Positions 32,962-49,530 of a stretch of DNA of 64,000 bases are shown here, one piece after another. The notes under the pieces were generated by a model. The model saw nothing but the letters and a program-made list of their open reading frames with translations, was not told the DNA's origin and ran no database searches. This DNA comes from Halobacteriovoraceae bacterium (GTDB lineage Bacteria > Bdellovibrionota > Bacteriovoracia > Bacteriovoracales > Bacteriovoracaceae): NCBI GenBank assembly GCA_963719505.1, contig CAVRCF010000005.1, positions 128,001 to 192,000 on the forward strand, in the 5' to 3' direction. Numbering within the stretch: position 1 is the first letter of the stretch; each line of letters begins with the position of its first letter. Made by a program: the position numbers and the translations under genes.

Positions 32962-33773
32962 GACTGGCATTTTGGGCAGTGATAGGTCCCTCTTTGACCT
33001 AGAACGGTCTTAACGACTTGAGTCTTTTTACACTGCTGGCAAATCTTTTGGTAAAAGACAACCAGGTGATTGACTCCGCCTCCCACACTTCCTGTGGTGT
33101 CGGCGTAACCTCCAGCGAAAGTTGTGCCTCCCGTTTCAGTTGCACCATCAATAACCACAAAGACGGCCTCATAGAGCTTTTTTATCTCTTTTGGTTTTAA
33201 AGTCTTAACTTGTCGGTTGGGAAGAACAAAGGCCCTGGCACATATTTCATTGGCGATATAGTTTCCGGTTCCCGCAAAAAGTGATTGATCGAGGAGAGTG
33301 ACTTTTATAAATCTTTCCGGGTATTTTAAAATTTTCTCTTTGAAGTATTCAAAAGTAAAAGTGTTGCTTTTAAGGTCTTCACCAAGTTCGCTGAGTTTCC
33401 TATCAGCGTCCGCTTTTTCATACAGATACATATGACCAAAACGCCTTGGATCGACATAGGCGATAAACACCTTCTCATCGTTATGCATGCCCATAAACTG
33501 CAAGTGTGTGTGTTTTTCGACAACCTTGGTTTTTGATATTCTCCATCCACCGGTCATGCCAAGATGGGAGAGTATATGTCTACTATCTGAGAGAAGGAAA
33601 TTTAGCATCTTACCTTTTCTTTGAACCTCTAAAATGATTTTGCCTTTAAGTTTATCCATTTTGGTGTGGATGATGGAGTCTGAAACACCTGATAGGGCAA
33701 CACTTTTGATCGTGAAGGGTGTGATCAAGTTGAGTTGATTTTTAATTGTTTCGACTTCGGGTAACTCAGGCAT
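32958..33773 (-). CDS. mutM: Formamidopyrimidine-DNA glycosylase / AP lyase
   Basis: MPELPEVE, RKGK, HLGMTG, DPRRFG, LLDQ..AG.GN..A.E, C-terminal CxxC..CPxCQ zinc finger. Confidence 0.97.
   Translation of the reverse strand: MPELPEVETIKNQLNLITPFTIKSVALSGVSDSIIHTKMDKLKGKIILEVQRKGKMLNFLLSDSRHILSHLGMTGGWRISKTKVVEKHTHLQFMGMHNDEKVFIAYVDPRRFGHMYLYEKADADRKLSELGEDLKSNTFTFEYFKEKILKYPERFIKVTLLDQSLFAGTGNYIANEICARAFVLPNRQVKTLKPKEIKKLYEAVFVVIDGATETGGTTFAGGYADTTGSVGGGVNHLVVFYQKICQQCKKTQVVKTVLGQRGTYHCPKCQS
33757..33763. repeat. att core, left junction (TCGGGTA)
   Basis: Identical 7-mer at 48667-48673, within mutM codons 4-6. Confidence 0.8.
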
Positions 33774-33803
33774 ATCTTTCTAACCTTCTGAAAATACTGA
33801 TTG

Positions 33804-33812
33804 ATTATAGCA
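33804..33812 (-). promoter_or_regulatory. Extended -10 promoter (TGCTATAAT) supplied by the island upstream of mutM
   Basis: Minus strand reads TG-C-TATAAT about 30 bp before the mutM ATG. Confidence 0.65.
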
Positions 33813-33824
33813 CTTTATCACTCT

Positions 33825-33853
33825 ATGCCATCCCATGCCAGCCGTATGCCAGC
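33825..33853. repeat. ATGCCA(G/T)C x3; putative Int arm-type sites (inverted copy at 33911-33918)
   Basis: atgccatc 33825, atgccagc 33835 and 33846; same motif at 48530 and 48539. Confidence 0.7.
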
Positions 33854-33859
33854 AAAAAG

Positions 33860-35134
33860 CTAAGAATCTGTGCCATTTTTGTAGTTTGATAGTGAAATAA
33901 CATTAGAAAAGCTGGCATGAGTTTCCTCTTCCTTTCTAGTTTTCTTTCTAATATGTTCCATTATCATTTGCGAGAAATGCTTTTGATCATCTTCATTACT
34001 TTTTGAATAGTGATCAGCAAGTTTTAAATCCTTATGGCCTGTCATCGCTATTACCGCGTCTAGGCCACCACCAATTTTACGAGCAAGCTTCGCCATCCCA
34101 TGTCTAAGAATATGAGTACCCGAATAGGGAACTCCACTTTTTCTTTGAGCTTCACGGTAGTTTAGCTGAATTGTGCCGTAGTTTAATGGATTGCCTTCTA
34201 CATGAAAAACAAAGTCACAGCCATGTACTCTAAATGCATCACGCTTAGTTAGAATTTCCATGATTTCATCAGTAATGAAAACAGGACGTGATTCTTTATT
34301 TTTTGGAAATGCTTTTAGCTCTAAAAAAGTCTTGTTACTCGGATGAAAAATACTCGTGTGTTTGATCATCATTCTTCTATTTTTCATATCAATATTGCTC
34401 CACTGAATTCCGCATATCTCTCCGATACGTCCAGCACAGTAAAACTGCATTTGTGCCAACTCTCTATAAAGAGGTGGTAGATAATCAAAAAATAAAAGAG
34501 CACTATCAAGATCAATTTGTTTTCTCTTATCCGGTACAGGTCTGATAAAACCAAGCTTTCGATGCTTGGTCTTAATTGGACATGTTAGTAACATGGCTTC
34601 TTTTTCAAATTCTTCACTTTGCTTGTACCAATTAAAAATTGTGACCAGAAGATTTAACTCATTATTGAGATTACATCTTCTAGCATTTCCTCTACCTGAT
34701 TCTAGATACTGTTCACTTTTAAAGTATTCTACAGTCTTGTTTACCCATGCCGTTATTTTTGAAGGAGTGATCCTGTCCATAGGTAAATGCTCAATACTCT
34801 TTAAAAGATGATAGCGTCTAAGCCAAATAGTTTTTGTACTGGTTGCAAGGGTCGGGAAGTGATGCTTTTGCATCACCTCCCACACTTCCCTTAATGTTGA
34901 AAAACTTGAATTTAATTCATTGTTTGAATTTGCTGTTGTTTTGGAATACGAGATTCCATCAAATGTTTTGCGCCACTGCTTTGCTTCAAATAAAGTCTCA
35001 AAAGTTTCTTGGAACTGCTTGCCATTGATTTTTTTCATAGCAAGATAGGTTCCAGACTTTTGATACTTATAGATTGCAGTTGCATTTTTTACTTTTACGT
35101 AACCTTTTTTACTCATAGTTCTCCTTTGAGCCAA
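33860..35134 (-). CDS. int: Tyrosine recombinase / integrase
   Basis: R (GRIGEI), HILRH, GH and catalytic Y (LADHYS); N-terminal arm-binding-like extension. Confidence 0.93.
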   Translation of the reverse strand: MAQRRTMSKKGYVKVKNATAIYKYQKSGTYLAMKKINGKQFQETFETLFEAKQWRKTFDGISYSKTTANSNNELNSSFSTLREVWEVMQKHHFPTLATSTKTIWLRRYHLLKSIEHLPMDRITPSKITAWVNKTVEYFKSEQYLESGRGNARRCNLNNELNLLVTIFNWYKQSEEFEKEAMLLTCPIKTKHRKLGFIRPVPDKRKQIDLDSALLFFDYLPPLYRELAQMQFYCAGRIGEICGIQWSNIDMKNRRMMIKHTSIFHPSNKTFLELKAFPKNKESRPVFITDEIMEILTKRDAFRVHGCDFVFHVEGNPLNYGTIQLNYREAQRKSGVPYSGTHILRHGMAKLARKIGGGLDAVIAMTGHKDLKLADHYSKSNEDDQKHFSQMIMEHIRKKTRKEEETHASFSNVISLSNYKNGTDS

Positions 35135-35361
35135 CTAATGACTTCACTAGGAATGAACCAGAGCCTTCCGCGCTTTTTTCTATATGGTATATCGCCTTCA
35201 GATACTAAGTTATAAATGGTTCCCTTAGAATACCTTGTAAAGCGAGCTACCTCATCAATACCCCATATTAATTTGTCAAAGAACACTTCCGTTGTACGGA
35301 TATCACTAGGGTTATGATCATAGCTTAAATTCCCAGAATTGTAATTATTTTTGTAAACCAT
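35113..35361 (-). CDS. Excisionase-like HTH (HTH_17/AlpA) protein
   Basis: IDEVARFTRYSKGTIYNLVSEGDIP..K..GRLWF. Confidence 0.85.
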   Translation of the reverse strand: MVYKNNYNSGNLSYDHNPSDIRTTEVFFDKLIWGIDEVARFTRYSKGTIYNLVSEGDIPYRKKRGRLWFIPSEVISWLKGEL

Positions 35362-35551
35362 TCACTTCCTTTGATTTAGAGTGTTTAGTTGTTTTATTCT
35401 TAAAATGCTCCATGACTTCATCATAAGAAAAGCGGATATGTTTCCCCATTTTTATATAGGGAATTTCATCCTTACTTATCCAGTAGTAGATCGTATTAAC
35501 GGGAACATTAACAAGACTTGCTAACTCCTTTGGAGAAAGATTATTCTTCAA
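35345..35551 (-). CDS. Second excisionase-like HTH (HTH_17) protein
   Basis: LSPKELASLVNVPVNTIYYWI...IP..K.GKHIRF; TTG start with AAGGAG RBS. Confidence 0.85.
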   Translation of the reverse strand: MKNNLSPKELASLVNVPVNTIYYWISKDEIPYIKMGKHIRFSYDEVMEHFKNKTTKHSKSKEVNGLQK

Positions 35552-35900
35552 ATTTAATCTCCTTTCCCCATACGGGATTTGAGTAGCGCTTACCATCAAA
35601 ATCCATTTTTACAGGTAAAAGTCTGTCCTCGTAACAATCAGCCTCCCACTGATCCCATTGAAACCATTTGATCTGATTATGAGGAACGTTTCTCAAATTA
35701 TGCATTCTTACGTCTGATGCAAAATTTTCAAAGTTCATTTCTAGTCCAATCCCTTTATAGTTTTTATCTCTGGATTTAAATAAAATGATCTCGTACCCTG
35801 TATCCGTTTTTATTATTTTGTGACCGTACTTTCTTTTTTGCCCTGCTTTATTCCACGTAACTTCTTCTGTATGATATTTTAGATTTTCTTTTGTTGGCAT
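35541..35900 (-). CDS. Hypothetical protein, first gene of the xis-xis-int run
   Basis: 119-aa ORF with RBS, overlapping the next gene. Confidence 0.7.
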   Translation of the reverse strand: MPTKENLKYHTEEVTWNKAGQKRKYGHKIIKTDTGYEIILFKSRDKNYKGIGLEMNFENFASDVRMHNLRNVPHNQIKWFQWDQWEADCYEDRLLPVKMDFDGKRYSNPVWGKEIKFEE

Positions 35901-35926
35901 ATATTTTCCCTTGTCTAATCGGCCCG

Positions 35927-35976
35927 CTTTCTGACCTCCTTCTCCAAGTTTACGTAGCGAGAGGGAGGTCAGAAAG
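35927..35976. other. 18-bp inverted repeat with a 14-nt loop
   Basis: ctttctgacctccttctc / gagagggaggtcagaaag, one mismatch; weaker pairing extends outward. Confidence 0.75.
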
Positions 35977-36246
35977 TAAGGGTCGAAAAAGTTAATAATT
36001 TAAAAGATTTGCCAACTAAAGCATAAAGGTATTGGAACGCAGTGGATGCGTATTACCCTATGAGTAGATTGGCATTCTCTCTTTCTATATATTTAATAAT
36101 TGTTTTAAACTCGTCTCATATCCTCGGTGCAAGGCCTTAGAGTTTATTAAATTAAATGTCTGATTATTAAAGTCTTTTTCATAAATAAAGATGAACTTGT
36201 CTGTATTTATTTCTTTTCTAAGTTCTGGATTGGACCCCGTTTTAGG

Positions 36247-37050
36247 CTACCTTTGATTTTCTAATAAATACTCTTTCGGGCTCAACATGCCAAGCCCTGA
36301 ATGAGGTGCTATTTCATTATAATCTTTCATCCAACCCTTGATCATCTTCAGCACTACATCCGCACTGTAACAGTCGCTGTTGTAGACATAGTCTCGCTTG
36401 ATCGTTTTCACAAAAGCTTCACTCATTCCATTTGATTCTGGGCTATAGGCAGCTGTATAACAGCTTTTTAAACCAAGATGGTTCGCCAAATTCTTAACAG
36501 AATGGGCTCGATAAATACTTCCTCTATCCGATAAAAATTCTATCGTTCTCAAAGTTTTGTAATCTTTAAACCTGTATTTAACTGCTTTCAGCATCAGACT
36601 CTCAATATCAGTCGCAAGCAGTGGTGATTTTGAAGCTACAAATGAGAGAACCTCTCTGTCACATGTATCTAAAACAAAAGAAACAAAAACTTTTTCTCCG
36701 TTAAAGCACTTAATCTCAAAACAATCACTGCACCACCTTGTATTTGAATGCAGAGTCATTACTTTGCCAGTTGGAGTGTGAGTTCTCGTCACAGCAGACT
36801 TTGGAAGAAGAAGTCCATTCACTCTCATGATCCTGTAGATACGCTTCTTATTAAGCCTTGGATGCCCCAGAGTAAGTCGAAGACGATTGACCATGGCCGT
36901 AACTCGTTTATAACCATAAGTTGGTCGTAAGGAAACAATTGACCTAATCTGGCTTAGTATTTCTCCATCTTCAGCTTTAAAGTAAAATTTCTTTGAGCTA
37001 GTCGTTTTATAAATTGATTTTGAGTGGACTCCAAACATTTCACAGATCAT
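36247..37050 (-). CDS. IS3-family transposase OrfB (DDE)
   Basis: YGYKR, WCSD, DTCDRE, SDRG, SPESNGMSE.F..TIK, YN..PHS.L. Confidence 0.95.
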   Translation of the reverse strand: MICEMFGVHSKSIYKTTSSKKFYFKAEDGEILSQIRSIVSLRPTYGYKRVTAMVNRLRLTLGHPRLNKKRIYRIMRVNGLLLPKSAVTRTHTPTGKVMTLHSNTRWCSDCFEIKCFNGEKVFVSFVLDTCDREVLSFVASKSPLLATDIESLMLKAVKYRFKDYKTLRTIEFLSDRGSIYRAHSVKNLANHLGLKSCYTAAYSPESNGMSEAFVKTIKRDYVYNSDCYSADVVLKMIKGWMKDYNEIAPHSGLGMLSPKEYLLENQR

Positions 37051-37412
37051 TTTTTTTGATCCTTTCTTTTTGAGTTTGATGAATTCTTTTGCTCGATCAA
37101 CTCCTGTTCCAAGATCTTTTTTTTATAAAAATCGATGATATCCTGAGCGACCTCTTCTCTGAGGGTAGATTCACCAACTTTCTTGAGTAGTTTATCTTTG
37201 TCTTTTTTAAGTTGATCAATTTGTTTCAAAAGGTCAGCAACATCGATATTAGTATCAGGTTTGTCTTTCATAGCTCTTTTCCATTGGTATAAAGTTACTG
37301 CATTTATATCATGGACTCGTGCTAAAACTGAAATTGGAACACCTTTTGAACGATGTTCCTGTAGAATTTGGATTTTTTGATCTTCGGTAAATCTTCTTCT
37401 TTTTCTTTCCAT
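37047..37412 (-). CDS. IS3-family transposase OrfA (HTH)
   Basis: RRRFT..QK..I, LYQWK, leucine-zipper-like tail, A AAA AAG slippery site. Confidence 0.93.
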   Translation of the reverse strand: MERKRRRFTEDQKIQILQEHRSKGVPISVLARVHDINAVTLYQWKRAMKDKPDTNIDVADLLKQIDQLKKDKDKLLKKVGESTLREEVAQDIIDFYKKKILEQELIEQKNSSNSKRKDQKK

Positions 37413-37722
37413 TTTTTCCTCCGTTAAGAGGTAGCCGTCAAAAGGGGGTCACGAACAAAAAGTTCTTCACATAAAAATTTATTTTCTTCTCTGTCACGGC
37501 ACTTGAACATTATCCATCTTTGATTTCTGTTCATGGCCGCTTCAAGATCAGGGTGTAAGCTCATAATTTAACCTAATTTTGTTACCTTCAATGTACTAGT
37601 GCCAAGAAATCCAAAAACATCATCGAAAAACTTGGAAGAACTTAAATAAAATTAGATTATCTCATGAAAATTAGGTACTTATATATACGGGAAAGTTGTT
37701 CTTGCATTGAGTTAGGGGGAGT

Positions 37723-38196
37723 ATGTTAGATTTATACAGAAGGTTTAGAGTTAAAAAATTTTATGATGAATTTTATAAAACAAAGACTGAGTCTGGGAAA
37801 AAACTGGGAAAGTGCTTACCTACTTGGATTTATAAACATGACATAAAGTGTTGGACTAATAACATGCTAGCTGACTCTATTAAGTGCTATGTTCAAGATA
37901 ATATGACAGCTTTTAGGAATGACGGAATTGTTCCATATATACAGGGGGAGCAGAACCGTCGAGGGAACATTAGATTTTTAATTATTAACTCATTACTTTC
38001 ATTAATCGTTCTTTCTATTTCTCTTTTGGTATCTGTAAGATTATCGAATGATGATTCAAGTTTTGAAAAGGAATGGCTACAAGAGCAGAAAAGACAACAT
38101 GCTGAGAGTATAAAATATTTAGAAAATATAAGTGATAAGTTTTCGATTTCTGATAAAAAATTAATTAAAAGTAATATAAAGAAGAAAATAAAATAA
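37723..38196 (+). CDS. Hypothetical membrane-anchored protein
   Basis: 157-aa ORF, GGGGAG RBS, one TM segment. Confidence 0.65.
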   Translation: MLDLYRRFRVKKFYDEFYKTKTESGKKLGKCLPTWIYKHDIKCWTNNMLADSIKCYVQDNMTAFRNDGIVPYIQGEQNRRGNIRFLIINSLLSLIVLSISLLVSVRLSNDDSSFEKEWLQEQKRQHAESIKYLENISDKFSISDKKLIKSNIKKKIK

Positions 38197-38208
38197 TAAA
38201 TACTTAGG

Positions 38209-38637
38209 TTAAGCTTCCATCAAATGAATTTCAGAATACAGGGAGTTTTTTGCAGGTACTTTCTGAACTGGTTTTCTTAAAACTTCAATAGCTTTTTGGA
38301 AAATTTCAATTAGCATTGGCTTGTCGTATTCTTCATGAATAGCAGTAATAACATCAACCTTCCAACCATCTTTATCTTTAAAAGCTGGGAGAGTAAGTAG
38401 GCGATGAATGATAGGTGTATCTAGCGACTCATCGCTTTTTACACATTCTAATAAAAATAAAAGTGAATCTAGGCGCTTTCCAACTTTGTTATCTAAGATT
38501 TCTTTGAAAGGACGTTCAATATTTTGAGAAAGGGCCACACTAGATACACCAATATAGCGTGCGACAACCTTGTGAGATGAATCTCCGAGTAATAGTCTGA
38601 TACGATCTACCACTTCTCTTGTTAATACGTTTTTCAT
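38209..38637 (-). CDS. HTH protein, putative antitoxin/regulator (Xre/MbcA-like architecture)
   Basis: N-terminal HKVVARYIGVSSVALSQN helix-turn-helix; palindrome over its promoter. Confidence 0.6.
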   Translation of the reverse strand: MKNVLTREVVDRIRLLLGDSSHKVVARYIGVSSVALSQNIERPFKEILDNKVGKRLDSLLFLLECVKSDESLDTPIIHRLLTLPAFKDKDGWKVDVITAIHEEYDKPMLIEIFQKAIEVLRKPVQKVPAKNSLYSEIHLMEA

Positions 38638-38685
38638 AATGAAGTCCTTATCTTTCTACACAGCCTTTCGGCTTATAAAATATAT

Positions 38686-38723
38686 AGCTTTAACAAAATA
38701 CCACCTTTTGTTAAAGCTGTCAA
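38686..38723 (-). promoter_or_regulatory. Sigma70-like promoter overlapped by a perfect 13-bp inverted repeat (operator)
   Basis: AGCTTTAACAAAA-N7-TTTTGTTAAAGCT at 38686-38718; minus strand TTGACA-17bp-TATTTT. Confidence 0.7.
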
Positions 38724-38786
38724 TGTTGTGTTGTAATTTCAGGTAGTTATTGATAATCTTTAATGGTCTAACTTATTGGAAATACG

Positions 38787-39482
38787 ATGGCTTATAATAT
38801 TATTTATTCAAGAACATTTTTGGAGAAGGTTTCTAACTGGCCTGAGAGTTTGAGAAAAATGGCATTCGAAGCAGCAGAGCACGCAGCATTAGATCCCAGT
38901 TTAAATGATTATAAAAGGCCTTATTTAACTCCCTATAGACAAAAGCATCCAACAACAGACCATCAATATACATTGTACTTTTTAGAACTTTCAACTACAG
39001 AAATATTTATTGCTTGGATCAATGATAGTACATGCTTGCATGACACAAGAAATAAGCAAACAGACCCGTGTTTAAAGGAGTTTGAAAAACTTCAGGCACA
39101 AGGCTCTATTGAAAACTTTGATCCAAAATACCACCAAATTGTTTTTGAGGTTCATCCAGACGTATCTAAGCCCATTAGATGTCGCTCGCAGTTTTTAGGC
39201 CATGAGACATATTTGAATACATACTTAGACTCCAGTATCCCTGCTTTTGTTGGCCATGCTTTTAATTGTGATGAACCGAATACCGATATCGCTAAAAGAC
39301 ATGTTAAAGAATTCTTAAGTGAGCTTCATTCTTCTCTTACGTCTTCATCGAAAGAGTTAGAGATTCATCTTGATAAAAAAAGTCACCTTCATGAAATTAT
39401 GCTTCTAACTGAAGGCCATAATCAAAATCAATGGGAGATTATAGCAGATCCAGATGATTTCATTTTAAAGAAGAAATCTTAA
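38787..39482 (+). CDS. Putative YhaV/RelE-like toxin domain with an extra C-terminal domain
   Basis: QYTLYF...IFIAWIND..L..DP...F resembles the YhaV C-terminal pattern (LFFR...IIxAWVND..T.R...D.Y.VF). Confidence 0.55.
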   Translation: MAYNIIYSRTFLEKVSNWPESLRKMAFEAAEHAALDPSLNDYKRPYLTPYRQKHPTTDHQYTLYFLELSTTEIFIAWINDSTCLHDTRNKQTDPCLKEFEKLQAQGSIENFDPKYHQIVFEVHPDVSKPIRCRSQFLGHETYLNTYLDSSIPAFVGHAFNCDEPNTDIAKRHVKEFLSELHSSLTSSSKELEIHLDKKSHLHEIMLLTEGHNQNQWEIIADPDDFILKKKS

Positions 39483-39567
39483 ATATATACCTTTAACTGA
39501 TGAAATATATTTGTCAGGTGTTAAGATAAATTAATTTTTTGCTTTGGCCCCCAATTCAGTAGACACT

Positions 39568-40308
39568 TTAATTAGCACTCCGGTACTGGAGTGGACTCAT
39601 CATCTTTAATGCTGAATGTGGTGCTATTTCATTATAATCCGCAAACCACTCTGGCAACATTTTTAAAACTGTTTCAGCATCCTTACAGTCTGCGAGATAA
39701 GCATAATCTCTTTTGATAGTGTGAACGAAAGATTCTGCCATTCCATTTGAAGAAGGGCTATATGGAGCTGTATAACATGTCAGAAGCCCTAAGTCTCTGG
39801 CCGCATTACGTGTGATGTTTGCTCGATAAATTGTTCCTCTATCTGTTAGCCATTGAATTTTATGTGGCGTCTCAACATCCTTAAATCTATTTAAGACTGA
39901 CTCGCTCATCAAATCTCGAATATCTGTTGCTTGAAGTGGTCGATCTTTGGCCACAAAACTTATTGCTTCCCTGTCCTTACAATCTAAGCTGAAAGCAACG
40001 TAAACTTTTTCTCCGTTAAAGCACTGAAGCTCAAATCCATCAGAGCACCAACGAGTATTTGAATGAAGAGTCATTACCTTTCCAGTTCCAGGATGCTTTT
40101 TTCTTGATGGATATTTTTTAAACAATAAATCGTTCATATCCATAACCCTATATATTCTTTTGCGATTAACAATCGCTTTGTTATGAAGAACTCTTTCTCT
40201 ATTAAGCATCGCTGTAATCCTCTTATATCCGTACGTTGGGCGTTTCTCTTTTAACTCCTTTATGGATTCTAATATTTCAGCATCATCTTTTTTCCTATAT
40301 CTTTTCAT
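39568..40308 (-). CDS. IS3-family OrfB (frame open further upstream, reached by -1 frameshift from orfA)
   Basis: YGYKR, WCSDGFE, DCKDRE, TDRG, SNGMAESF. Confidence 0.93.
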   Translation of the reverse strand: MKRYRKKDDAEILESIKELKEKRPTYGYKRITAMLNRERVLHNKAIVNRKRIYRVMDMNDLLFKKYPSRKKHPGTGKVMTLHSNTRWCSDGFELQCFNGEKVYVAFSLDCKDREAISFVAKDRPLQATDIRDLMSESVLNRFKDVETPHKIQWLTDRGTIYRANITRNAARDLGLLTCYTAPYSPSSNGMAESFVHTIKRDYAYLADCKDAETVLKMLPEWFADYNEIAPHSALKMMSPLQYRSAN

Positions 40309-40415
40309 TTCTAAGCCTTTTGATTTTTTATAAAAAGCTGCCCTTGATACTTTTAAATATCTACAGACGAGACTTACCTTGAATCGTTTTAACTTAACGA
40401 TTTCTTTGGCAGCTT

Positions 40416-40748
40416 CTACTTTTCTTTTTTGGGATTTTTTTTAAAGATCTCTACCGCTTCATTCAGAATTTCTTTTTCTAAAGAAAGGTCCCCGACAATC
40501 TTTTTGAGTCTTCGGATTTCTTCTTTTTGCTTTTCATTTTCTGAAATTAGCTCTGATTGAGAATGATTCATCTTTGGATTTTTGTCTGACATCTGTCTTT
40601 TCCATTGAGCTAGAGTTACTGGGTGTATGCCATGTTTTGTGGCAATACTGATCATTGAATTCTTTTGATCAAAGTACTCTGCTAAGATAGCACATTTTTG
40701 TTCTTTGCTAAAATGCTTACGTTTTTTCGGTGACTTAGTAGTCGTCAT
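40416..40748 (-). CDS. IS3-family OrfA
   Basis: RKHFSKEQK, TLAQWK, LKKIVGDLSLEKEIL; A8 run near the end. Confidence 0.92.
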   Translation of the reverse strand: MTTTKSPKKRKHFSKEQKCAILAEYFDQKNSMISIATKHGIHPVTLAQWKRQMSDKNPKMNHSQSELISENEKQKEEIRRLKKIVGDLSLEKEILNEAVEIFKKNPKKEK

Positions 40749-40870
40749 AACTTCCCCTTATTGGTTGGAAAAGTGTCTACTTGAAAAGGGGGTTACAAAC
40801 ATTTTATTCACTCATAATCCATTCAGAATATCCGATAACTAACTATAAACATTAAGATTTGGGGTTTGTA

Positions 40871-42031
40871 ATGACGAAAGGAAGATCGTCTCGTTTTAAC
40901 GAGAATTGGGAGAGTGTCCGTGATGAAAAAGGTAATTTAACAGATTTTGGCGAGTTTTTAAAAAGTAAGTTAATTAGTTTTTTGGAGCATGATTATTTAA
41001 ATATTTTATGTGGGCTCGGTACTTCTCTTGACTGTACTTCTGAAGGTAAAAAAGTTGCTCCTACTATGGGAGATCTATGGAGCGGTATAAAGACACAGAA
41101 AGAAGAGCTTCTTTTAAAGGTAATTGAGCTAACACCTTATGACTCTTCTGATGATAACATCGAAGAACTATTGTCATGTTGTAAATTGGCAATGGGATTT
41201 TATAAAGAAGGCTCCAAAGAATATAAAGCAGTAGAAGAGTTTGTCACATTCGCAGAAAACCTAATCGTAGACAGATGTAATTTCTGTGAAGATGATAAAC
41301 TCGACTTGAGCAGTCACCAAAGCTTTTTATTGAAGTTTGCAAGGAGAGGGAATAAATCAAGAAGAGCGAACCTATTTACAACTAATTATGATTTAGTTTT
41401 TGAAGTCGCAGCATCAAACACGGGGTATATTTTAAATGATGGTTTTTCATTCTCATATCCACGAAAGTTTTTATCAACAAATTTCAATATAGACTTTGTT
41501 CAAAGTCGTATAGCCAACAAAGAACCTAATTACTTAGAAAAGGTTATAAATTATTATAAGTTGCATGGATCAATTGATTGGGAGAGAGCTGGTGACTCAG
41601 GAGTTACTAAGAAAAACGGTAAGGCAGATTCTCCATTGATGATTTTCCCAAGAGCTTCAAAATATGAAATGTCATATCAATCTCCATATTTGGAAATGAT
41701 TACAGCTTTTCAGACACAACTATTGAATAACAATAGTTGCTTGATCATCTGCGGTTTTGGTTTTAATGATAATCATATTTCAAGTCACATTCTGAATGCA
41801 TTAAGAACAAATCCTACGATGAGTATTATTATCGTTGACCCTTCAATAGAGGAAAAAGCAAAGGGTAATAAAGAAATATCTGAAATCTCAAAAATGATTG
41901 ATGCAGGTGATGGTCGTATTGTCCTTCTAACATTAACGTTCAAGGAATTTGTAGAAGTGTTTCCTGACCTTGTATCTGAGTCTGAGTGGGAAATTCATAT
42001 GAATAGAGTTAGCAAGACTAAAGGAGAGTAA
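40871..42031 (+). CDS. SIR2-family NADase of a SIR2-HerA defence system
   Basis: GLGTS (GxGxS), FTTNYD, YKLHGSIDW, GFGFNDNHI. Confidence 0.88.
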   Translation: MTKGRSSRFNENWESVRDEKGNLTDFGEFLKSKLISFLEHDYLNILCGLGTSLDCTSEGKKVAPTMGDLWSGIKTQKEELLLKVIELTPYDSSDDNIEELLSCCKLAMGFYKEGSKEYKAVEEFVTFAENLIVDRCNFCEDDKLDLSSHQSFLLKFARRGNKSRRANLFTTNYDLVFEVAASNTGYILNDGFSFSYPRKFLSTNFNIDFVQSRIANKEPNYLEKVINYYKLHGSIDWERAGDSGVTKKNGKADSPLMIFPRASKYEMSYQSPYLEMITAFQTQLLNNNSCLIICGFGFNDNHISSHILNALRTNPTMSIIIVDPSIEEKAKGNKEISEISKMIDAGDGRIVLLTLTFKEFVEVFPDLVSESEWEIHMNRVSKTKGE

Positions 42032-42032
42032 T

Positions 42033-43682
42033 ATGAATTATTTTTCTCCTGAAAGAATTATAGGCAGTGTAAATTCCGTTAATGCAAGTTCATGTGTAGT
42101 AAACTTACCTGAGGCCGCTAACAAAAATGGCAGAAGTTTATATGGAAACAACTTAAAGGCAGGGGTTGTAGGAGAGTTTGTTGTTATAGAAATGCACCAG
42201 TATGCTTTACTAGGAAAGATTATAACAACAAAGGTGCCAGAGTCTGAACGTTTATCAGTGAATGTAGATCTCGGGCAAAGTGTAAGTGCAAATCCATTAG
42301 GTATTGTTCAGCTTTTAGCAAGCTTTGACTCAATAAATGACAGATTCACCCCTGGCTTGAAAGAGTATCCCAGGATTGGAGCTAAAGTATATGCAGCACA
42401 CCCTGATTTGATTCAGAAACTTTCAAGTGTTGATATATCCAAGAAGGTATTTAAATTAGGTGAGATACCGGAAGCAAACTATATAGATATGAATGTAGAT
42501 GTGACGAATCTTGTAGGTAGGCATTGTGTTATTTTAGGGACCACTGGTGGGGGAAAAAGTTGGACTACTGCTACTATTGTAGAAGGTCTTGCAAAAAACA
42601 AAGTAAAGACTATTCTCCTTGATCCGACTGGAGAGTACCATACAATAAGTTCAAGTGTTAAGAATGTTTACTTGGGTGACTATGATTCAGCTCCAGATTC
42701 TCAGCAATGCTTCTTCCCATATACATCTTTAGAAGAAAGAGATTTATTTGCAATTTTTCAACCTAGTTCTGCGAGTCAGATACCAAAGTTAAAAGAGGCA
42801 ATCGCAAGTTTAAAACTAGCTAAAATTGATCCTACAATTGCAACATCAGGCATGGTTTTAAAGGCAGGAAAAGATAAGACAAATTTTGAAGCTTCTATGA
42901 TAACAAACGGTAAGGCAATTGTTAGTGGTACATCTGACTTTGATATAAGCCTGTTGTCTAAGCAAATAGTAGAAGAGTGTGTCTGGCCTCAAGACTTCAA
43001 GAAGCCGACATTCTGGGGTGGGCGAAATGACCAAATGTATGGTTACAATATAAGTCTTATTTCTCGAATAGATTCATGTTTGAATAGTAATAGTTTAGAT
43101 TGTTTATTTGATACCTCACAGGGGAATAGCTTTATTGATGAAGTTGATAAGTTTCTAAAGGGAGAAGACTCAATTTTAAGGGTTTCTGCAGAGTCTATCT
43201 CCTTTGAAAATAATGCAAGGGAGATCACAGCAAATGCAATAGGAAGGTACCTCTTGAAGTTAGCAAGACAAAATTGTTTTAAGAAAAATCCCGTTGTTGT
43301 TATTGTTGATGAGGCACATCAGTTTATGGACAAAAGCGTTGGAGATGAAATAAGCAAGGTTAAACTTGACTCTTTTTCCTTAATTGCTAAAGAAGGGAGA
43401 AAATACGGATTGAATATAATTTTAACAACACAAAGGTCTAGGGATATTTCTGAGGGAGTTTTAAGCCAGATTGGAACATTTATTGTACACAGATTGATTA
43501 ATGAGTCTGATATTAGAGTTGTAGAAAAAGCATCAGGAGAGGTTGATGGAAAAGTAATTAATTTCTTACCGACACTATCTCAAGGTGAAGCTATCGTTCT
43601 AGGAGTCGACTTTAATATTCCATTGACTGTTAAAATACATAAACCAACAAATCCGCCAAAATCTGAAGGACCAAAATACTAA
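42033..43682 (+). CDS. HerA/DUF87 FtsK-like ATPase
   Basis: N-terminal HAS-barrel-like region, GTTGGGKS, DPTGEY, IVDEAH, KEGRKYG, TQR. Confidence 0.92.
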   Translation: MNYFSPERIIGSVNSVNASSCVVNLPEAANKNGRSLYGNNLKAGVVGEFVVIEMHQYALLGKIITTKVPESERLSVNVDLGQSVSANPLGIVQLLASFDSINDRFTPGLKEYPRIGAKVYAAHPDLIQKLSSVDISKKVFKLGEIPEANYIDMNVDVTNLVGRHCVILGTTGGGKSWTTATIVEGLAKNKVKTILLDPTGEYHTISSSVKNVYLGDYDSAPDSQQCFFPYTSLEERDLFAIFQPSSASQIPKLKEAIASLKLAKIDPTIATSGMVLKAGKDKTNFEASMITNGKAIVSGTSDFDISLLSKQIVEECVWPQDFKKPTFWGGRNDQMYGYNISLISRIDSCLNSNSLDCLFDTSQGNSFIDEVDKFLKGEDSILRVSAESISFENNAREITANAIGRYLLKLARQNCFKKNPVVVIVDEAHQFMDKSVGDEISKVKLDSFSLIAKEGRKYGLNIILTTQRSRDISEGVLSQIGTFIVHRLINESDIRVVEKASGEVDGKVINFLPTLSQGEAIVLGVDFNIPLTVKIHKPTNPPKSEGPKY

Positions 43683-43683
43683 A

Positions 43684-45618
43684 ATGTTTACTATGCCATA
43701 CAGTCTTATTCATTATGCACACGAAAAAGGTCTTAAAAGAGGCAAGAAGTCTGTATTTGGTAATATCAATGGACAAATAATTACGCTTACTCCAAGCGCA
43801 GATGCTACTATTCTTATTACAATTCACTTGCATGATCCATCTAGTATAACAACTGAAAGGTTGCGGTCCTTCGACTCATTCAAAAAATCTTCTGCTCAGC
43901 CTCATGACGTTGTAGAAGATGTATGTCGCTTTGGAATTACTCATAAGTCATTCGAGAAAAAACAAATTAAAGTACTACAGGATGGCATAGACGATATTAT
44001 CAAAGTCGTTGAGTCTTTTAATAAGCCAACATATCAAAAGGATTTAATTCTCATAGGTGGAGTTGCAAGACCAAATTCTGAAGAAGAAATAGAAAAGTAT
44101 AAGGCTAAGAATACTGAAAAGTTTAATAGGAAGGTCGATTATATGTCCGCTGGGATAGTAACTTTGTTATCCTCCATTATAGGTGGCTATTTGTTTGGCT
44201 ATGGTATGGCCATGATTTTTTCTAAGCTTAAAGCTGGCCTACATATGATCTCAAGAGCCTTTTTCTACTATATGATTCCTGGTGGGATTTATCTCAAAAG
44301 AGCAAAGAAAATAGATCGGAATGGTAGGATAATTGTAACACTATGTGCTCTAGTCATGCTCGTCGTGGCCGAGTTTATGCTTATCTATTATGGAACTAAC
44401 TCTAAAGGATATGGATACTCTTTTAATGAAGCCATGGACTTGTTTATAAATCTTCTTTCAAATAAGGGGCAGTATCAAAGAGAGTTCATTATAGGGCTTG
44501 TTATTGTTCTAGGGTTGAATTTCTTACCAGCACGACTCCAATTTAATAAAGACATTAGGATTGAGGAAGGTATTGATGTAGATGATGAATACTATAATAG
44601 AGCAACAGAGCTAAAAAGTGCGAATAAGTGGAGGACAGGTATCCTAGTTTCTTCGATATTTATCGGAATGTTTGGGTTTGTTCGTCATGTAACCTTGGGA
44701 GCTGACTTTGATTACGTATACCCGATACATCAATGGGGTTGGTTTTTTGGATCTTGGCTTCTTTCATTTATATTTGTTGCCTTGCTTGTTCAGCTAGTTC
44801 CTATGTTGAGAAAGAGTGTTGGCTCAAATGATTATAAACCAATAAAGAAATCTATTAAGACCCTTGAGATATTAGTTTATTCAGCATCTATAGCTACTTG
44901 GATCTTGTCAGGGGTGAATTACGTTAATCTAGAGTTTCCTTCTAAAGAAATAACTCAAGAAGGCTTGGTTACTAAGCTTGATTATAATTACAAGACCAAG
45001 GAATACTTCCTAGAATTTAAATCCGATAAGTATCCTAATGTGTTTATGAATGCGCATACTAAAAAACAACCATATTTGATAGATAATACAAAGGCACGAG
45101 CCACGATTAAAGAGGGATACTTAGGGTCACCATTAATAACAGAAATGAGCTATTTCGAGGTGAATACCTTTGAATCAGCAAGTAAACACTTCAAAAGTGA
45201 AAATGAGCTTAGAAGCTCAAACATTGAAGCATTTGTTAAATTTGATAAGAGTGATGCTTTTTTAGTTCAAATTGATAAATGGGCAACTCAATGTAAAGAA
45301 AAGAAAGATTACAGCTGTAGACTTTCTAGTTATGTATATGCTCACAAGAAAGATACCTTGAATCAAGCTCGCTTTGTAAAAATGGGTTGCTTAGAAGCAG
45401 ATGATCCTATTTCTTGTTATGGATATTTCTTTGGAGGTAAGTTTGATGATACTTCAAAGAAGACGGCACTTGAAAGACTTGAAAAGGGCTGTGATTTATA
45501 TAAAGCTGATCACTGTCTTTACTGGGCATATTCTTTAAGAAAAGTTGATCATCCTAAATACCACAGAAAAATAAAAGAATTAATCAAGAAAGGTGCGGAG
45601 TTGAAGAGACTCAAGTAG
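43684..45618 (+). CDS. Multi-pass membrane protein with C-terminal Cys-containing Sel1/Hcp-like repeats
   Basis: About 7 hydrophobic segments; C..K..YSC, GCL...ISC, GCDL...HC helical repeats. Confidence 0.65.
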   Translation: MFTMPYSLIHYAHEKGLKRGKKSVFGNINGQIITLTPSADATILITIHLHDPSSITTERLRSFDSFKKSSAQPHDVVEDVCRFGITHKSFEKKQIKVLQDGIDDIIKVVESFNKPTYQKDLILIGGVARPNSEEEIEKYKAKNTEKFNRKVDYMSAGIVTLLSSIIGGYLFGYGMAMIFSKLKAGLHMISRAFFYYMIPGGIYLKRAKKIDRNGRIIVTLCALVMLVVAEFMLIYYGTNSKGYGYSFNEAMDLFINLLSNKGQYQREFIIGLVIVLGLNFLPARLQFNKDIRIEEGIDVDDEYYNRATELKSANKWRTGILVSSIFIGMFGFVRHVTLGADFDYVYPIHQWGWFFGSWLLSFIFVALLVQLVPMLRKSVGSNDYKPIKKSIKTLEILVYSASIATWILSGVNYVNLEFPSKEITQEGLVTKLDYNYKTKEYFLEFKSDKYPNVFMNAHTKKQPYLIDNTKARATIKEGYLGSPLITEMSYFEVNTFESASKHFKSENELRSSNIEAFVKFDKSDAFLVQIDKWATQCKEKKDYSCRLSSYVYAHKKDTLNQARFVKMGCLEADDPISCYGYFFGGKFDDTSKKTALERLEKGCDLYKADHCLYWAYSLRKVDHPKYHRKIKELIKKGAELKRLK

Positions 45619-45994
45619 ATCATCCTTATGAAAATTGTAAAGTCTTTGTATATAATTACATTTGTTTTGACTATTGTTTCTGGTTTTTATGCAAATCATA
45701 TCTTTGAAAGAAGTATAGAGATTAATGATGTCGAAATATCTAATATTAAAAATATATTAAATTCACATGGGTTAAAGGCTGAGAATCTAGATGATTACAA
45801 AATTTATGTAGCAGATATTGGTATTTTGCAGGTAAGTTTGTTTGATAATATAATTCTAGTAAATAGTAGATATTTAAAAAACCTTCATGAAAATGAAAGT
45901 CATATAGCATTCTTTTTTGCACATGAAACAAGTCACAATCCTATATATTTGTTCGTGACCCCCTTTTGACGGCTACCTCTTAACGGAGGAAAAA

Positions 45995-46360
45995 ATGGAA
46001 AGAAAAAGAAGAAGATTTACCGAAGATCAAAAAATCCAAATTCTACAGGAACATCGTTCAAAAGGTGTTCCAATTTCAGTTTTAGCACGAGTCCATGATA
46101 TAAATGCAGTAACTTTATACCAATGGAAAAGAGCTATGAAAGACAAACCTGATACTAATATCGATGTTGCTGACCTTTTGAAACAAATTGATCAACTTAA
46201 AAAAGACAAAGATAAACTACTCAAGAAAGTTGGTGAATCTACCCTCAGAGAAGAGGTCGCTCAGGATATCATCGATTTTTATAAAAAAAAGATCTTGGAA
46301 CAGGAGTTGATCGAGCAAAAGAATTCATCAAACTCAAAAAGAAAGGATCAAAAAAAATGA
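45995..46360 (+). CDS. IS3-family OrfA
   Basis: Identical protein to 37047-37412. Confidence 0.93.
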   Translation: MERKRRRFTEDQKIQILQEHRSKGVPISVLARVHDINAVTLYQWKRAMKDKPDTNIDVADLLKQIDQLKKDKDKLLKKVGESTLREEVAQDIIDFYKKKILEQELIEQKNSSNSKRKDQKK

Positions 46361-47159
46361 TCTGTGAAATGTTTGGAGTCCACTCAAAATCAATTTATAA
46401 AACGACTAGCTCAAAGAAATTTTACTTTAAAGCTGAAGATGGAGAAATACTAAGCCAGATTAGGTCAATTGTTTCCTTACGACCAACTTATGGTTATAAA
46501 CGAGTTACGGCCATGGTCAATCGTCTTCGACTTACTCTGGGGCATCCAAGGCTTAATAAGAAGCGTATCTACAGGATCATGAGAGTGAATGGACTTCTTC
46601 TTCCAAAGTCTGCTGTGACGAGAACTCACACTCCAACTGGCAAAGTAATGACTCTGCATTCAAATACAAGGTGGTGCAGTGATTGTTTTGAGATTAAGTG
46701 CTTTAACGGAGAAAAAGTTTTTGTTTCTTTTGTTTTAGATACATGTGACAGAGAGGTTCTCTCATTTGTAGCTTCAAAATCACCACTGCTTGCGACTGAT
46801 ATTGAGAGTCTGATGCTGAAAGCAGTTAAATACAGGTTTAAAGATTACAAAACTTTGAGAACGATAGAATTTTTATCGGATAGAGGAAGTATTTATCGAG
46901 CCCATTCTGTTAAGAATTTGGCGAACCGTATTGGTTAAAAAGCTGTTATACAGCTGCCTATAGCCCAGAATCAAATGGAATGAGTGAAGCTTTTGTGAAA
47001 ACGATCAAGCGAGACTATGTCTACAACAGCGACTGTTACAGTGCGGATGTAGTGCTGAAGATGATCAAGGGTTGGATGAAAGATTATAATGAAATAGCAC
47101 CTCATTCAGGGCTTGGCATGTTGAGCCCGAAAGAGTATTTATTAGAAAATCAAAGGTAG
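46357..47159 (+). pseudogene. IS3-family OrfB, frameshifted near 46935
   Basis: aaccgtattggttaaaaag versus aaccatcttggtttaaaaag in copy 1 (two substitutions and a 1-bp deletion). Confidence 0.85.
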
Positions 47160-47552
47160 CCTAAAACGGGGTCCAATCCATATTTTATAATCTCTTTATG
47201 TTCTTTATGCCTTGGTGCTTACCTAGTTTTTAAAAAGGAAAAGGTAAAGCAATCTTTAATTAGGTATATTTTAGGATTATCGATAGCTTGCTATATGGAG
47301 AGTAATGCAGATATTGAAGGTTGTAAGCTAATAAATAATCAACAAGCCGCCTTGTCGGGCCTAGACCATCTTGATCAAGAAGTTAGTAGTATAAGAAGTA
47401 TTTTAGGCTTATTTAAGCTCAATGCACATCCTCCTATTTTAGTAAGAAAGCTAGTATTAAAATCTTATTGTCGTGATGCGTCATTCTTGAAAACTGATAA
47501 ATAAGTTATATTTTAGGTTCTATGAGTGAATTCTATCTGGCATAATATATTT

Positions 47553-48476
47553 ATGGATAAATTAATTAAAAACAGAAACATTATATTGCTTCTTGTAGCG
47601 CTAGTTCTAATGACATCATGTGCACTCAATAATGGTTATAAAAATTCACCTGGTAAAACAGATGAAGAGAAAAAGTATAACTTTATAATGAGTCTATATG
47701 AGCAAGAGCGATTCATTCTTTCATATGAAAACATAAAAATGTTTATAACTGAGTATCCAGAATCAGATAAGTTACAAAAACTTAGATGGATGAAGGTTAG
47801 GATTGCAAACGATCAGCAGGACTATAAAAAACTACAAAGAGTAAGTCGAGATTACTTAGAAAAATATCCTGATACAGACAAAAAAGATGAACTTGTTAAA
47901 ATGAAAGATCAGGCAGATGAGAGATTCAATACATTTGATACTCATATGGAATTCAATTATTACTTTGGTTGGGCTATGGGGCAAAGTGGAAATTTTGATG
48001 ATAACCATAAAGACCGCGTTACAAATATGGGACTGCACTATTATTTCAAGGAAAACTATGCATTTGGAGTTGATAGGACTGTAATACTTTATGATGGAGA
48101 TGATTCTCAGTTTAATTCAGTAGATACTTCTGAAAAGAATGATCAAGTCAGTATCACTCTCGCTACGCCAACGTTTACCTATCGCAATTTGTTTCACGAT
48201 AAGTTTACATTTATGTACCGTGTAGGTTACTCATGGGTTCAAAATGGTCTTGGTGATCGGTTCGAGAGTTCAGATGAGGTAAACGATTCAGGGCATGCCA
48301 TTTCTCAAAAGTTCCTGTTTAATTACTGTTATGACAAAGAAGGAAAGGTTAAATGTTGGAACGGAGACAATGTTTCATTTGGATTCTTTACCTTTAATTT
48401 TATTGATGGTGCGGTAGGAAAAACAGAATTAAAAGATAGTATGCTATGGGGGTTCTTACTAGGAATATCAACATAG
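47553..48476 (+). CDS. Lipoprotein with a BamD-like TPR N-terminus and beta-barrel-like C-terminus
   Basis: Lipobox LMTSC; F..EYPES and YL.KYP.T motifs; amphipathic strands. Confidence 0.65.
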   Translation: MDKLIKNRNIILLLVALVLMTSCALNNGYKNSPGKTDEEKKYNFIMSLYEQERFILSYENIKMFITEYPESDKLQKLRWMKVRIANDQQDYKKLQRVSRDYLEKYPDTDKKDELVKMKDQADERFNTFDTHMEFNYYFGWAMGQSGNFDDNHKDRVTNMGLHYYFKENYAFGVDRTVILYDGDDSQFNSVDTSEKNDQVSITLATPTFTYRNLFHDKFTFMYRVGYSWVQNGLGDRFESSDEVNDSGHAISQKFLFNYCYDKEGKVKCWNGDNVSFGFFTFNFIDGAVGKTELKDSMLWGFLLGIST

Positions 48477-48529
48477 TTTACAGGTCCCATTTTTTATTAG
48501 TCCTTGTCTAAAATTCATTTCGTTATTTT

Positions 48530-48546
48530 ATGCCAGCCATGCCAGC
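48530..48546. repeat. ATGCCAGC x2; putative Int arm-type sites at the right end
   Basis: atgccagc at 48530 and 48539. Confidence 0.7.
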
Positions 48547-48666
48547 CGAATTCTGAAACATAGTTAAATCGAATGAAGTATTATGAAATCGAAAAAAGCG
48601 CAAAAGGCCTGTATCCATCGCTAGTATGTTGAAATTAAAAAACTTTTCAAATTGTAGAACGACGCC

Positions 48667-48683
48667 TCGGGTAGTTCTGGCAT
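48667..48683 (-). pseudogene. mutM: Displaced native 5' end of mutM / right att junction
   Basis: ATG CCA GAA CTA CCC GAG (MPELPE) with a GAGAG RBS, then reads into island sequence and stops after 20 codons. Confidence 0.85.
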
Positions 48684-48831
48684 AAATTATCTCTCTTCGG
48701 CATTACTACTTAAATTTAGACTGACTCTTCTATCATGACACCATATTAATTTTAGTTAAATTTACAGCCAAAAAATGGTGTAGTAAAGGTCGAAGGTTTC
48801 TGTCATAATAATTTAAGGGGCTTGTATCAAA

Positions 48832-49341
48832 ATGAAAAAAACTTATTACGATATATTTATGATTGTTGGCTGTGTTGGAATGATTATACTTGCAAGTATA
48901 TACTATCTAATCATGCGCGATTTCATTCCTTCTTTGTTCATGTTAGCTATCTCTTTGGTCTTTTTTCTGTTTTCAAGAAGACAGGTTCCTGACTTGGAAG
49001 ACTTAGGTCTGATCCACGAAGATATGGATAAAAGGTTTGTTTGGGGTGATCCTCAAAAATACGTTTGGGATAATGAACAATTCAAAATGTTATTTACCGA
49101 ATACAAAATCGCTGATTTGAAAGGTAAAGGTAGTCCTGTCACAAACGGGGGAATTCTTGTTACAGTTATTCTTAAAGGCTCTATGCCCTCTACTTTAGAA
49201 GAGTTAATAAAGAATGAAGGTTTTGAAAAAGATGATGGGGATGAAAGTCATTTTTGGAAAGTGTCTAGGGAAAGTACTTACAGCCCCGTTTCTGTCCAGA
49301 AGTTAGCTACTCATTATCAAAGTGTCCTTGTCAAAGTTTAA
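48832..49341 (+). CDS. Hypothetical membrane protein
   Basis: 169-aa ORF with two N-terminal TM segments. Confidence 0.7.
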   Translation: MKKTYYDIFMIVGCVGMIILASIYYLIMRDFIPSLFMLAISLVFFLFSRRQVPDLEDLGLIHEDMDKRFVWGDPQKYVWDNEQFKMLFTEYKIADLKGKGSPVTNGGILVTVILKGSMPSTLEELIKNEGFEKDDGDESHFWKVSRESTYSPVSVQKLATHYQSVLVKV

Positions 49342-49352
49342 ATACCTCTTTC

Positions 49353-49381
49353 TTGACAGTCCTATAAAATAGACCTAAATT
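49353..49381 (+). promoter_or_regulatory. Sigma70-like promoter
   Basis: TTGACA-17bp-TAAATT. Confidence 0.55.
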
Positions 49382-49407
49382 GAAAATTCATCACCAAGGA
49401 GGTTCTT

Positions 49408-49461
49408 ATGAAAAATTCAAACACAATTTCAAATAGAACATCTTTGGGTCTTTTAAAATAA
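49408..49461 (+). CDS. Putative 17-aa leader peptide (MKNSNTISNRTSLGLLK)
   Basis: Strong AAGGAGG RBS between the promoter and the GNAT gene. Confidence 0.4.
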   Translation: MKNSNTISNRTSLGLLK

Positions 49462-49530
49462 TTAAATCCATCCATTTTTGTTCTTTATCTTAAGTTTAAT
49501 TTTTTAACTAATTTAAAGGGTATTATTATT

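Follow-up and report, generated by a model that had tools for sequence, protein, structure and literature searches.

Two mutM-type starts bound a 14.9-kb segment

The window analysed here is a 64-kb stretch (G000:C5:128001-192000) of the genome of a Halobacteriovoraceae bacterium, whose whole assembly comprises 3.69 Mb. On its minus strand lies an intact copy of the DNA-repair gene mutM (fpg), preceded, across an 86-nucleotide spacer, by a tyrosine integrase gene and two small excisionase-family genes. A second mutM-type start, opening nothing more than a short stub, lies 14,910 bp away. We conclude that the intervening segment (33764-48673) is very probably a 14.9-kb site-specific integrative island, whose integrase recombines its own attachment site, attP, with the 5' codons of mutM and rebuilds the gene. 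The features that define the two ends are these, with coordinates counted in the window:

32958..33773, minus strand: mutM/fpg, intact, 271 amino acids (open reading frame (ORF); Pfam PF01149 and PF06831)
33757..33763, minus strand: core copy near the integrase, TACCCGA, nucleotides 11-17 of mutM; putative overlap or crossover region
33774..33859, minus strand: P arm, with an AGGTTA block, three arm-type repeats and a promoter-like site
33825-33831, 33835-33843 and 33846-33852, minus strand: P-arm repeats ATGGCAT, GGCTGGCAT and CTGGCAT, respectively, with GGCTGGCAT 62-70 nucleotides upstream of the ATG
33860..35134, minus strand: tyrosine integrase (PF00589, 4.5e-16, 59.5 bits against a cut-off of 27.1)
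35113..35361, minus strand: xis1, excisionase-like HTH_17 gene, conserved beside the integrase in 54 loci
35345..35599, minus strand: xis2, second excisionase-family helix-turn-helix gene (TIGR01764 excise, 3.2e-13; PF12728)
48530..48547, minus strand: P' arm-type repeats, two copies of GGCTGGCAT in tandem, 120-137 nucleotides from the core
48551..48589, minus strand: P'-arm block rich in TTCAY, with candidate sites for an accessory factor of the Xis or IHF type
48621..48683, minus strand: displaced mutM 5' end, encoding MPELPE from the ATG, then 14 element-encoded codons and a stop
48667..48673, minus strand: core copy far from the integrase, TACCCGA

The mutM product contains both expected domains, Fapy_DNA_glyco (PF01149, 6.3e-23, residues 1-115) and H2TH (PF06831, 3.3e-15, residues 130-218), and its translation begins MPELPEVET, which includes the PELPEVE start used to recognize Fpg/MutM. 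It matches the NCBIfam fpg model TIGR00577 at 2.5e-55 with 187.7 bits, narrowly below the curated equivalog cut-off of 203.3, and its best NCBIfam models are those of Fpg, ahead of Nei. Pro2 and Glu3 of Fpg are catalytic. The rebuilt mutM retains M-P-E-L-P-E and hence both of these residues.

At 33773 the minus strand reads aggttagaaagatATGCCTGAGTTACCCGAAgtcgaa (also given as ATGCCTGAGTTACCCGAA), with aggttagaaagat directly before it; at 48683 it reads ATGCCAGAACTACCCGAGgcgtcg (also given as ATGCCAGAACTACCCGAG) and reaches a stop after 20 codons, which translate as MPELPEASFYNLKSFLISTY. The two 18-nucleotide starts are identical at 14 of 18 positions, and the mismatches, at nucleotides 6, 9, 10 and 18, are all synonymous. 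Common to both is the 7-bp core TACCCGA, found on the plus strand as TCGGGTA at 33757-33763 and 48667-48673, with a spacing of 14,910 bp. An earlier note on this DNA had claimed a second, 20-codon MPELPE start at this distance from mutM, a common 7-bp core flanked by synonymous differences, and int and xis genes just inside the mutM-proximal copy. All three claims held: both starts are read on the minus strand, the differences fall at the four positions given above, and the integrase (33860..35134) and excisionase-family genes (35113..35599) lie where they were said to be.

Such a pair of starts is not expected by chance in a stretch of this size. In the whole window the degenerate motif CCNGARYTNCCNGA matches only at the two starts, each time on the minus strand, against a chance expectation of 0.02 matches; at least two matches were obtained in 0 of 100 shuffles. 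A longer motif, TGCCNGARYTNCCNGA, has three matches in the 3.69-Mb genome, as does a backward-read control pattern. The third genomic match (G000:C5:764184-764199; approximately 285-300 of locus L131) encodes an internal MPELPE in an unrelated aminotransferase-like ORF (...RMGMPELPEEIF...). This site is unoccupied and probably reflects a chance match at the peptide level; a secondary integration site is possible.

A predicted lambda-type integrase recurs beside mutM

The integrase probably starts at the ATG at 35116, as indicated by alignment with homologues, which gives a protein of 418 amino acids. This ATG overlaps the stop of xis1 as ATGA (35113-35116), so that translation of xis and int may be coupled. 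In the 418-residue numbering, R230, K262, H335, R338, H361 and Y370 are invariant across 71 aligned family members. An AlphaFold model built from this 71-sequence alignment (mean predicted local distance difference test score 84, predicted template modelling score 0.69) contains a sheet-plus-helix domain at residues 6-51 (strands 6-39, helix 42-51), joined by a linker of low confidence to a helical domain, which the catalytic domain follows. Its top structure matches are full-length lambda integrase chains (1z1b_B, E-value 7e-11 over 389 columns; range 370-390), followed by the Tn1549 integrase. The model thus predicts a lambda-Int-like architecture of three domains, for arm binding, core binding and catalysis. 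Sequence identity to lambda Int is 16-18%, identity to a phage collection reaches 22-28% at most, and there was one PDB sequence match (6e-6). The helix-turn-helix genes probably act as excisionases.

We asked where relatives of this integrase reside. Among 40 relatives, ten contain integrase matches of at least 46% identity, and every long match lies on the contig that carries mutM. Eight genomes (G001, G018, G023, G002, G021, G003, G032 and G004) have a match 88-179 nucleotides from mutM and on the same strand, several of these being C-terminal fragments. Matches 5.6-5.9 kb from mutM occur in G012 and as second copies in G001 and G023, consistent with tandem members or remnants, and G021 contains short fragments 42 kb from mutM and on another contig. 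Full-length integrases of 25-35% identity are found off the mutM contig (G017, G010, contig C10 of G018, C19 of G001, C24 and C105 of G002, and C16 of G013), so the association with mutM is a property of this integrase clade.

A scan of public loci extended this survey. It used an alignment of five integrases and one genome per species, and the best 80 of 129 confirmed stretches were taken, yielding 77 Bacteriovoracaceae loci from approximately 62 assemblies (counted by accession prefix) with integrase identities of 51-91%. Counting hits that cover the C terminus gave 84, one of them double-counted because L093 and L107 overlap. Full-length or contig-truncated mutM follows within 75-481 nucleotides (median 97) in 56 of the 84; in another 22 the motif opens a stub of 7-38 codons only, so that 78 of 84 hits are followed by mutM or an MPELPE stub within 75-481 nucleotides. 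Four reach the contig end, and two were scored as having no motif within 700 nucleotides (motif at 689 nucleotides in L129 and 1374 nucleotides in L125). Across the 77 loci the motif occurs at approximately 100 sites on the integrase strand and at 2 on the opposite strand. The integrase is therefore found, recurrently across genomes, next to and co-oriented with the mutM 5' end. Integrases followed by a stub are the upstream members of tandem arrays; one contig, for example, has three integrases approximately 30 kb apart with the last beside mutM (L103, L055, L095), and G001 has two consecutive elements of 4.9 and 5.6 kb.

Element ends, proposed crossover and arm repeats

Pairs of elements that end beside divergent mutM genes reveal what moves with the element, and here they stand in for a comparison with an empty site. 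The same element end is 93-100% identical over 300 nucleotides beside mutM genes whose identity falls to 28-54% immediately past the core. Loci L065 and L066 match perfectly (100%) over the 300 nucleotides before the start, but only at 28% from nucleotide 17 onward. Comparable drops are seen for L064/L121 (98-100% to 54%), L074/L084 (90-93% to 32%) and L097/L101 (94-96% to 48%). Since identity is lost immediately past the core, the element carries the upstream region, the ribosome-binding block and the first codons with it, and the remainder of mutM belongs to the host. Applied to the window, this comparison assigns codons 1 to approximately 4-6 of mutM, its ribosome-binding site and its upstream region to the element and the remainder of the gene to the chromosome.

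In every stub, similarity to mutM stops after ...CCCGA, at the second base of codon 6. Together with the mismatches at nucleotides 6, 9 and 10 in the window, this end point brackets the exchange to approximately nucleotides 11-17 (TACCCGA); cleavage would take place in or beside this core. Tyrosine recombinases use a 6-8-bp overlap. In G018 a variant, CTCCCGGA, is present in both copies, which fits a requirement for matching overlaps.

Beyond the core, the ends are paired by short repeats. The word GGCTGGCAT occurs three times in the window, always on the minus strand and always at an element end. Other elements have the same geometry with different words: CTGATTAC in G018, GGCTGTAT in G023, GGTTGGCAT and AGTCGTG in the two G001 elements, and GTCGGACT in G021. 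The repeats are thus element-specific and lie at approximately -70/-60 from the ATG and +120/+130 past the core. A common 8-mer is present in both of these fixed windows in 18 of 23 elements, compared with 99 of 506 mismatched pairings. Arm-type sites that an N-terminal domain reads should show this pattern, and we regard the repeats as candidate arm sites, which the N-terminal domain of the integrase would bind. Covariation between this domain and the arm motif is modest, with N-domain identities of 0.55 for the same motif and 0.46 for different motifs at 0.75-0.85 catalytic-domain identity, in pairs that are non-independent.

A TTCAY-rich block lies approximately 75-115 nucleotides from the core, just before the P' repeats, and is similar in elements with differing arm repeats. 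An accessory protein common to these elements may bind there.

Probable element-derived start signals of mutM

These observations suggest the following mechanism. A lambda-type tyrosine integrase would join attP to the DNA encoding the invariant Fpg/MutM N terminus, with the crossover in or beside TACCCGA. As attP would bring its own ribosome-binding region, start codon and first codons (M-P-E-L-P-E), the native 5' end would be displaced as the 20-codon stub at 48683 and the element 5' end fused to mutM. After integration mutM would lie directly downstream of xis-xis-int. A scan found no terminator-like site between int and mutM, and a promoter-like site overlies the arm repeats; on these grounds, the transcription and translation start signals of mutM would now be supplied by the element. 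Transcription would come from the promoter-like site, the xis-int operon or both.

In the P arm, the ribosome-binding-like AGGTTA block lies 9-14 nucleotides before the ATG. Across elements the conserved block is ...AGGTTA, 8-9 nucleotides and then the start codon. The promoter-like site comprises a -35 at 33831..33826 and a -10 TATAAT at 33809..33804 with a TG extension, and overlaps an arm repeat. The integrase arm sites lie 45-80 nucleotides upstream of the mutM start, which is where the promoter-like site of this copy is located.

The start codon supplied to mutM varies. In 56 genes it is ATG in 37, ATT in 9, TTG in 5, GTG in 4 and ATC in 1, so 19 of 56 are non-ATG. ATT is used in L056, L057, L058, L060, L061, L091, L098, L099 and L115 and ATC in L117. 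No in-frame start lies upstream in the ATT-start genes, and in these 10 of 56 the ATT or ATC is the sole possible start before Pro2, suggesting that Fpg translation is weak or specially regulated in those hosts. Further mutM genes with an ATT or ATC start were seen in G012 (L045:12951) and G016 (L051:11640).

By a tandem-repeat test, P-arm-like regions lie upstream of 10 of 24 mutM genes in relatives, one of which (G020) has no integrase match; several other relatives have an AGGTTA-type block alone. P-arm-like upstream sequence, that is, tandem repeats, AGGTTA or both, without an integrase nearby was noted at L026 (G020), L025 (G007), L027 (G017), L034 (G005) and L031 (G024). Because mutM has such upstream sequence even with no integrase nearby, much of the mutM expression region in this family appears to be element-derived. 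That the elements go beyond restoring mutM and also take over its expression, by replacing the promoter region, ribosome-binding site and start codon, is an idea that we consider unlikely at present. If true, element type or integrase occupancy could set or modulate the level of 8-oxoguanine repair in the host, and hence its G-to-T mutation rate. On the same reading, the strong conservation of PELPE-coding DNA could make the att site a broad-host landing pad.

Gene content of the island and its relatives

Between the integration module and the far end, the island contains the following:

35541..35900, minus strand: orf119, no assigned function, common to elements in 5 loci
36226..37459, minus strand: IS3-family insertion sequence (IS), copy A (orfA 37047..37412, orfB 36247..37050)
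37723..39482: three ORFs without a family match, of 157 (plus strand), 142 (minus strand) and 231 (plus strand) amino acids
39568..40748, minus strand: second, distinct IS3-family transposase pair
40859..43682, plus strand: predicted SIR2-HerA anti-phage defence pair (SIR2 40859..42031, HerA 42033..43682)
43684..45969, plus strand: 644-amino-acid protein and 113-amino-acid ORF, no family match, directly after HerA
45948..47180, plus strand: IS3 copy A', an inverted, 99.8% identical version of copy A with one 1-nucleotide gap; orfB shortened to 193 amino acids
47526..48476, plus strand: 316-amino-acid ORF with weak lipoprotein-like matches

The element has a GC content of approximately 0.34-0.36, the DNA to its left one of 0.37-0.40. 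SIR2 and HerA, whose genes are 1 nucleotide apart, match PADLOC models at 3e-87 and 9.1e-179, respectively, as well as Pfam SIR2_2 and DUF87/HerA_C; by gene content they are predicted to form a SIR2-HerA defence system. The inverted IS3 copies A and A' flank 8.5 kb (37460-45947) that contains this pair and a third IS3-type transposase. A composite transposon formed by the IS3 pair was considered and rejected, as no matching 3-nucleotide flanks were found in direct, inverted or outer-pair arrangements. Besides IS and defence cargo, the window copy keeps only the integration module and orf119.

To describe the family as a whole, element ORFs of all loci were clustered and representatives scanned against Pfam. 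The integrase is found in 75 loci, the small helix-turn-helix gene in 54, Replic_Relax in 29, and SSB and a serine resolvase in 9 each. VirB4/TraC-like, CagX/VirB9, TrbI/VirB10, TrbL/VirB6, coupling-protein and FtsK-like ATPase genes are present in 5-14 loci each. The presence of Replic_Relax and of genes of the type IV secretion system (T4SS) type in relatives indicates a family of conjugative and mobilizable elements. The copy in the window appears to have lost, or never had, transfer genes, although its relatives are conjugative or mobilizable. Elements with both ends in the retrieved DNA range from 1.2 to 14.9 kb.

Alternative explanations

Comparisons of DNA sequence establish the anatomy of the element and its recurrence in other genomes, as well as covariation of the arm repeats and horizontal spread. 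The earlier note had inferred that the element targets a DNA-repair gene and brings a recoded 5' end, and had proposed looking for integrase homologues beside mutM with a duplicated MPELPE. Both the 78 of 84 hits described above and the survey of 40 relatives revealed that arrangement, and the inference is supported by this recurrence and by the identity of element ends beside divergent mutM genes.

Several observations weigh against an island that restores mutM. The two copies of the core in the window are identical over 7 bp only, and the crossover was mapped by comparison. Five of 23 element pairs have no common arm words, these five including short remnants. The promoter-like site in the P arm is no commoner than in shuffles and has no obvious counterpart in other elements, and a Pfam scan of the window found no recognisable relaxase, Replic_Relax or T4SS gene in the island. 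Additionally, no empty site, that is, no near relative without the island, was found among the 40 relatives or in metagenome contigs. In those contigs an exact search for a 27-nucleotide flank-plus-core string gave 0 matches, and the flanking GNAT-like gene gave 129 pattern matches with 0 confirmed; the ORF beside the stub (48832..49341) has no match among the 40 relatives. The 3' side of mutM is syntenic in relatives, with a dihydrofolate-reductase-like gene and an LVIVD-repeat protein. The right flank (48684-52000) has no conserved counterpart near relatives' mutM, except for the GNAT gene, which in G006 lies approximately 8 kb off. Given its GC content of 0.34 and the lack of conserved synteny, the right flank may be older foreign DNA rather than native chromosome; it may represent an older, decayed insertion at the same hotspot.

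One could suppose that the second MPELPE is a chance match, or a local duplication unrelated to the integrase, and that IS3 transposition built the island. The identity is indeed short (the 7-bp core, and 14 of 18 nucleotides overall), and inverted IS3 copies bracket the defence genes. Yet a window of this size should contain the motif only 0.02 times by chance, and the IS copies, which have no matching duplications, are set well inward of the att sites. The recurrence after 78 of 84 integrase hits, the pairing of the two ends by arm repeats and the element-end identity beside divergent mutM all contradict such an origin, which we find scarcely credible. It is also very unlikely that we are dealing with a prophage or phage satellite and not with a conjugative or mobilizable island. 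Over its full length the integrase does weakly match those of streptococcal satellite phages and of unnamed phage records (22-25% identity), and many family members are small, at 3-10 kb. However, no capsid, terminase or other phage family was detected in Pfam, NCBIfam and PADLOC scans (PHROGs not run), and relatives carry the VirB4/TraC-like, CagX/VirB9, TrbI/VirB10, TrbL/VirB6, coupling-protein and Replic_Relax genes listed above.

A more serious contender, to which we give somewhat less than an even chance, is that this copy is now a fixed, non-transmissible remnant remodelled by IS elements, with mutM permanently dependent on the element 5' end. Consistent with this fate, the copy lacks the relaxase, Replic_Relax and T4SS genes that relatives have, and contains three IS3-family copies without matching target duplications. 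Many relatives keep just integrase fragments or bare stubs beside mutM, and P-arm-like sequence persists upstream of mutM in the relatives noted above, including the one without an integrase match. Conversely, the integrase ORF is complete and retains every catalytic residue, neither xis gene is disrupted, both ends keep intact arm repeats and the cores are identical.

Relation to known systems

A site-specific island that enters and rebuilds mutM has clear parallels. SXT/R391 conjugative elements use the 5' end of prfC as their integration site, giving the gene a new 5' end as well as signals for its expression. The island described here differs from these in its target and its integrase, and this copy has no conjugation genes, whereas its relatives have them. 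With the lambda integrase system (PDB 1z1b, 5j0n) it has in common three domains, as predicted, repeats in both arms, excisionase-like genes upstream and a short overlap; the positions of the arm repeats differ, the target is coding sequence, and the integrases are only 16-18% identical.

A close likeness in layout is to the islands and prophages with dusA-associated integrases, as described by Farrugia et al. (2015; PMC4482086). There, too, a tyrosine integrase lies beside the 5' end of a housekeeping gene, the 5' end is replaced, a displaced fragment marks the far end, and the arrangement recurs. The differences are the target, mutM/fpg, the Bacteriovoracaceae hosts, the nature of the rebuilt codons, which encode the catalytic N terminus (Pro2, Glu3), and the non-ATG starts in 19 of 56 genes. 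The likeness is one of layout. Islands in tRNA and tmRNA genes (Islander; PMC4383910) similarly restore a split gene, leave a displaced fragment that marks the far end and accrete in tandem at one site. Because the target here is a protein-coding start, unlike in those islands, restoration must preserve the frame, start codon and ribosome-binding site.

We found no report of mutM/fpg as an integration target in the literature, in a search that did not cover the supplements of island catalogues, where an uncommented entry is possible. The accessible portions of papers on Bacteriovorax and Halobacteriovorax genomes make no mention of mutM. The supposition that this target is undescribed therefore fits the literature searched, which cannot prove absence. 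We propose, from comparison across genomes, an island of a known type in which both the target and the integrase clade are new.

If so, a DNA-repair gene joins the few protein-coding genes known to host gene-restoring islands at their 5' ends. The target codons specify the catalytic N terminus and are among the most conserved short coding stretches of mutM, which probably allows one integrase family to spread over many genera of predatory bacteria. The region upstream of mutM in Bacteriovoracaceae is a hotspot at which conjugative and mobilizable elements, defence genes and remnants accumulate in tandem, and many mutM genes of these bacteria would now run on element-derived start signals. The regular layout of attP, with a core in codons and co-varying repeats at fixed distances, offers a system in which to study the evolution of arm-site specificity. 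The integrase family may also lend itself to site-specific insertion at a near-universal gene.

Stub arrays upstream of mutM

Arrays of stubs, all in mutM orientation, lie upstream of mutM in G021 (4 sites), G012 (5), G016 (5), G013 (4) and G006 (2). No close integrase match was found for the G013, G016 and G006 arrays, and in G013 and G006 none lies within the mutM locus either. Arrays without integrases could be either remnants or hitchers that use a family integrase in trans. A single site without an integrase nearby is present in G009, which belongs to a different genus from the host of the window. The integrase-poor arrays span 10182-17516 of L048 (G013), 11637-15649 of L051 (G016) and 10238-14191 of L049 (G006) and include a 1.1-kb unit; two of the G013 stubs have near-identical P' sequence.

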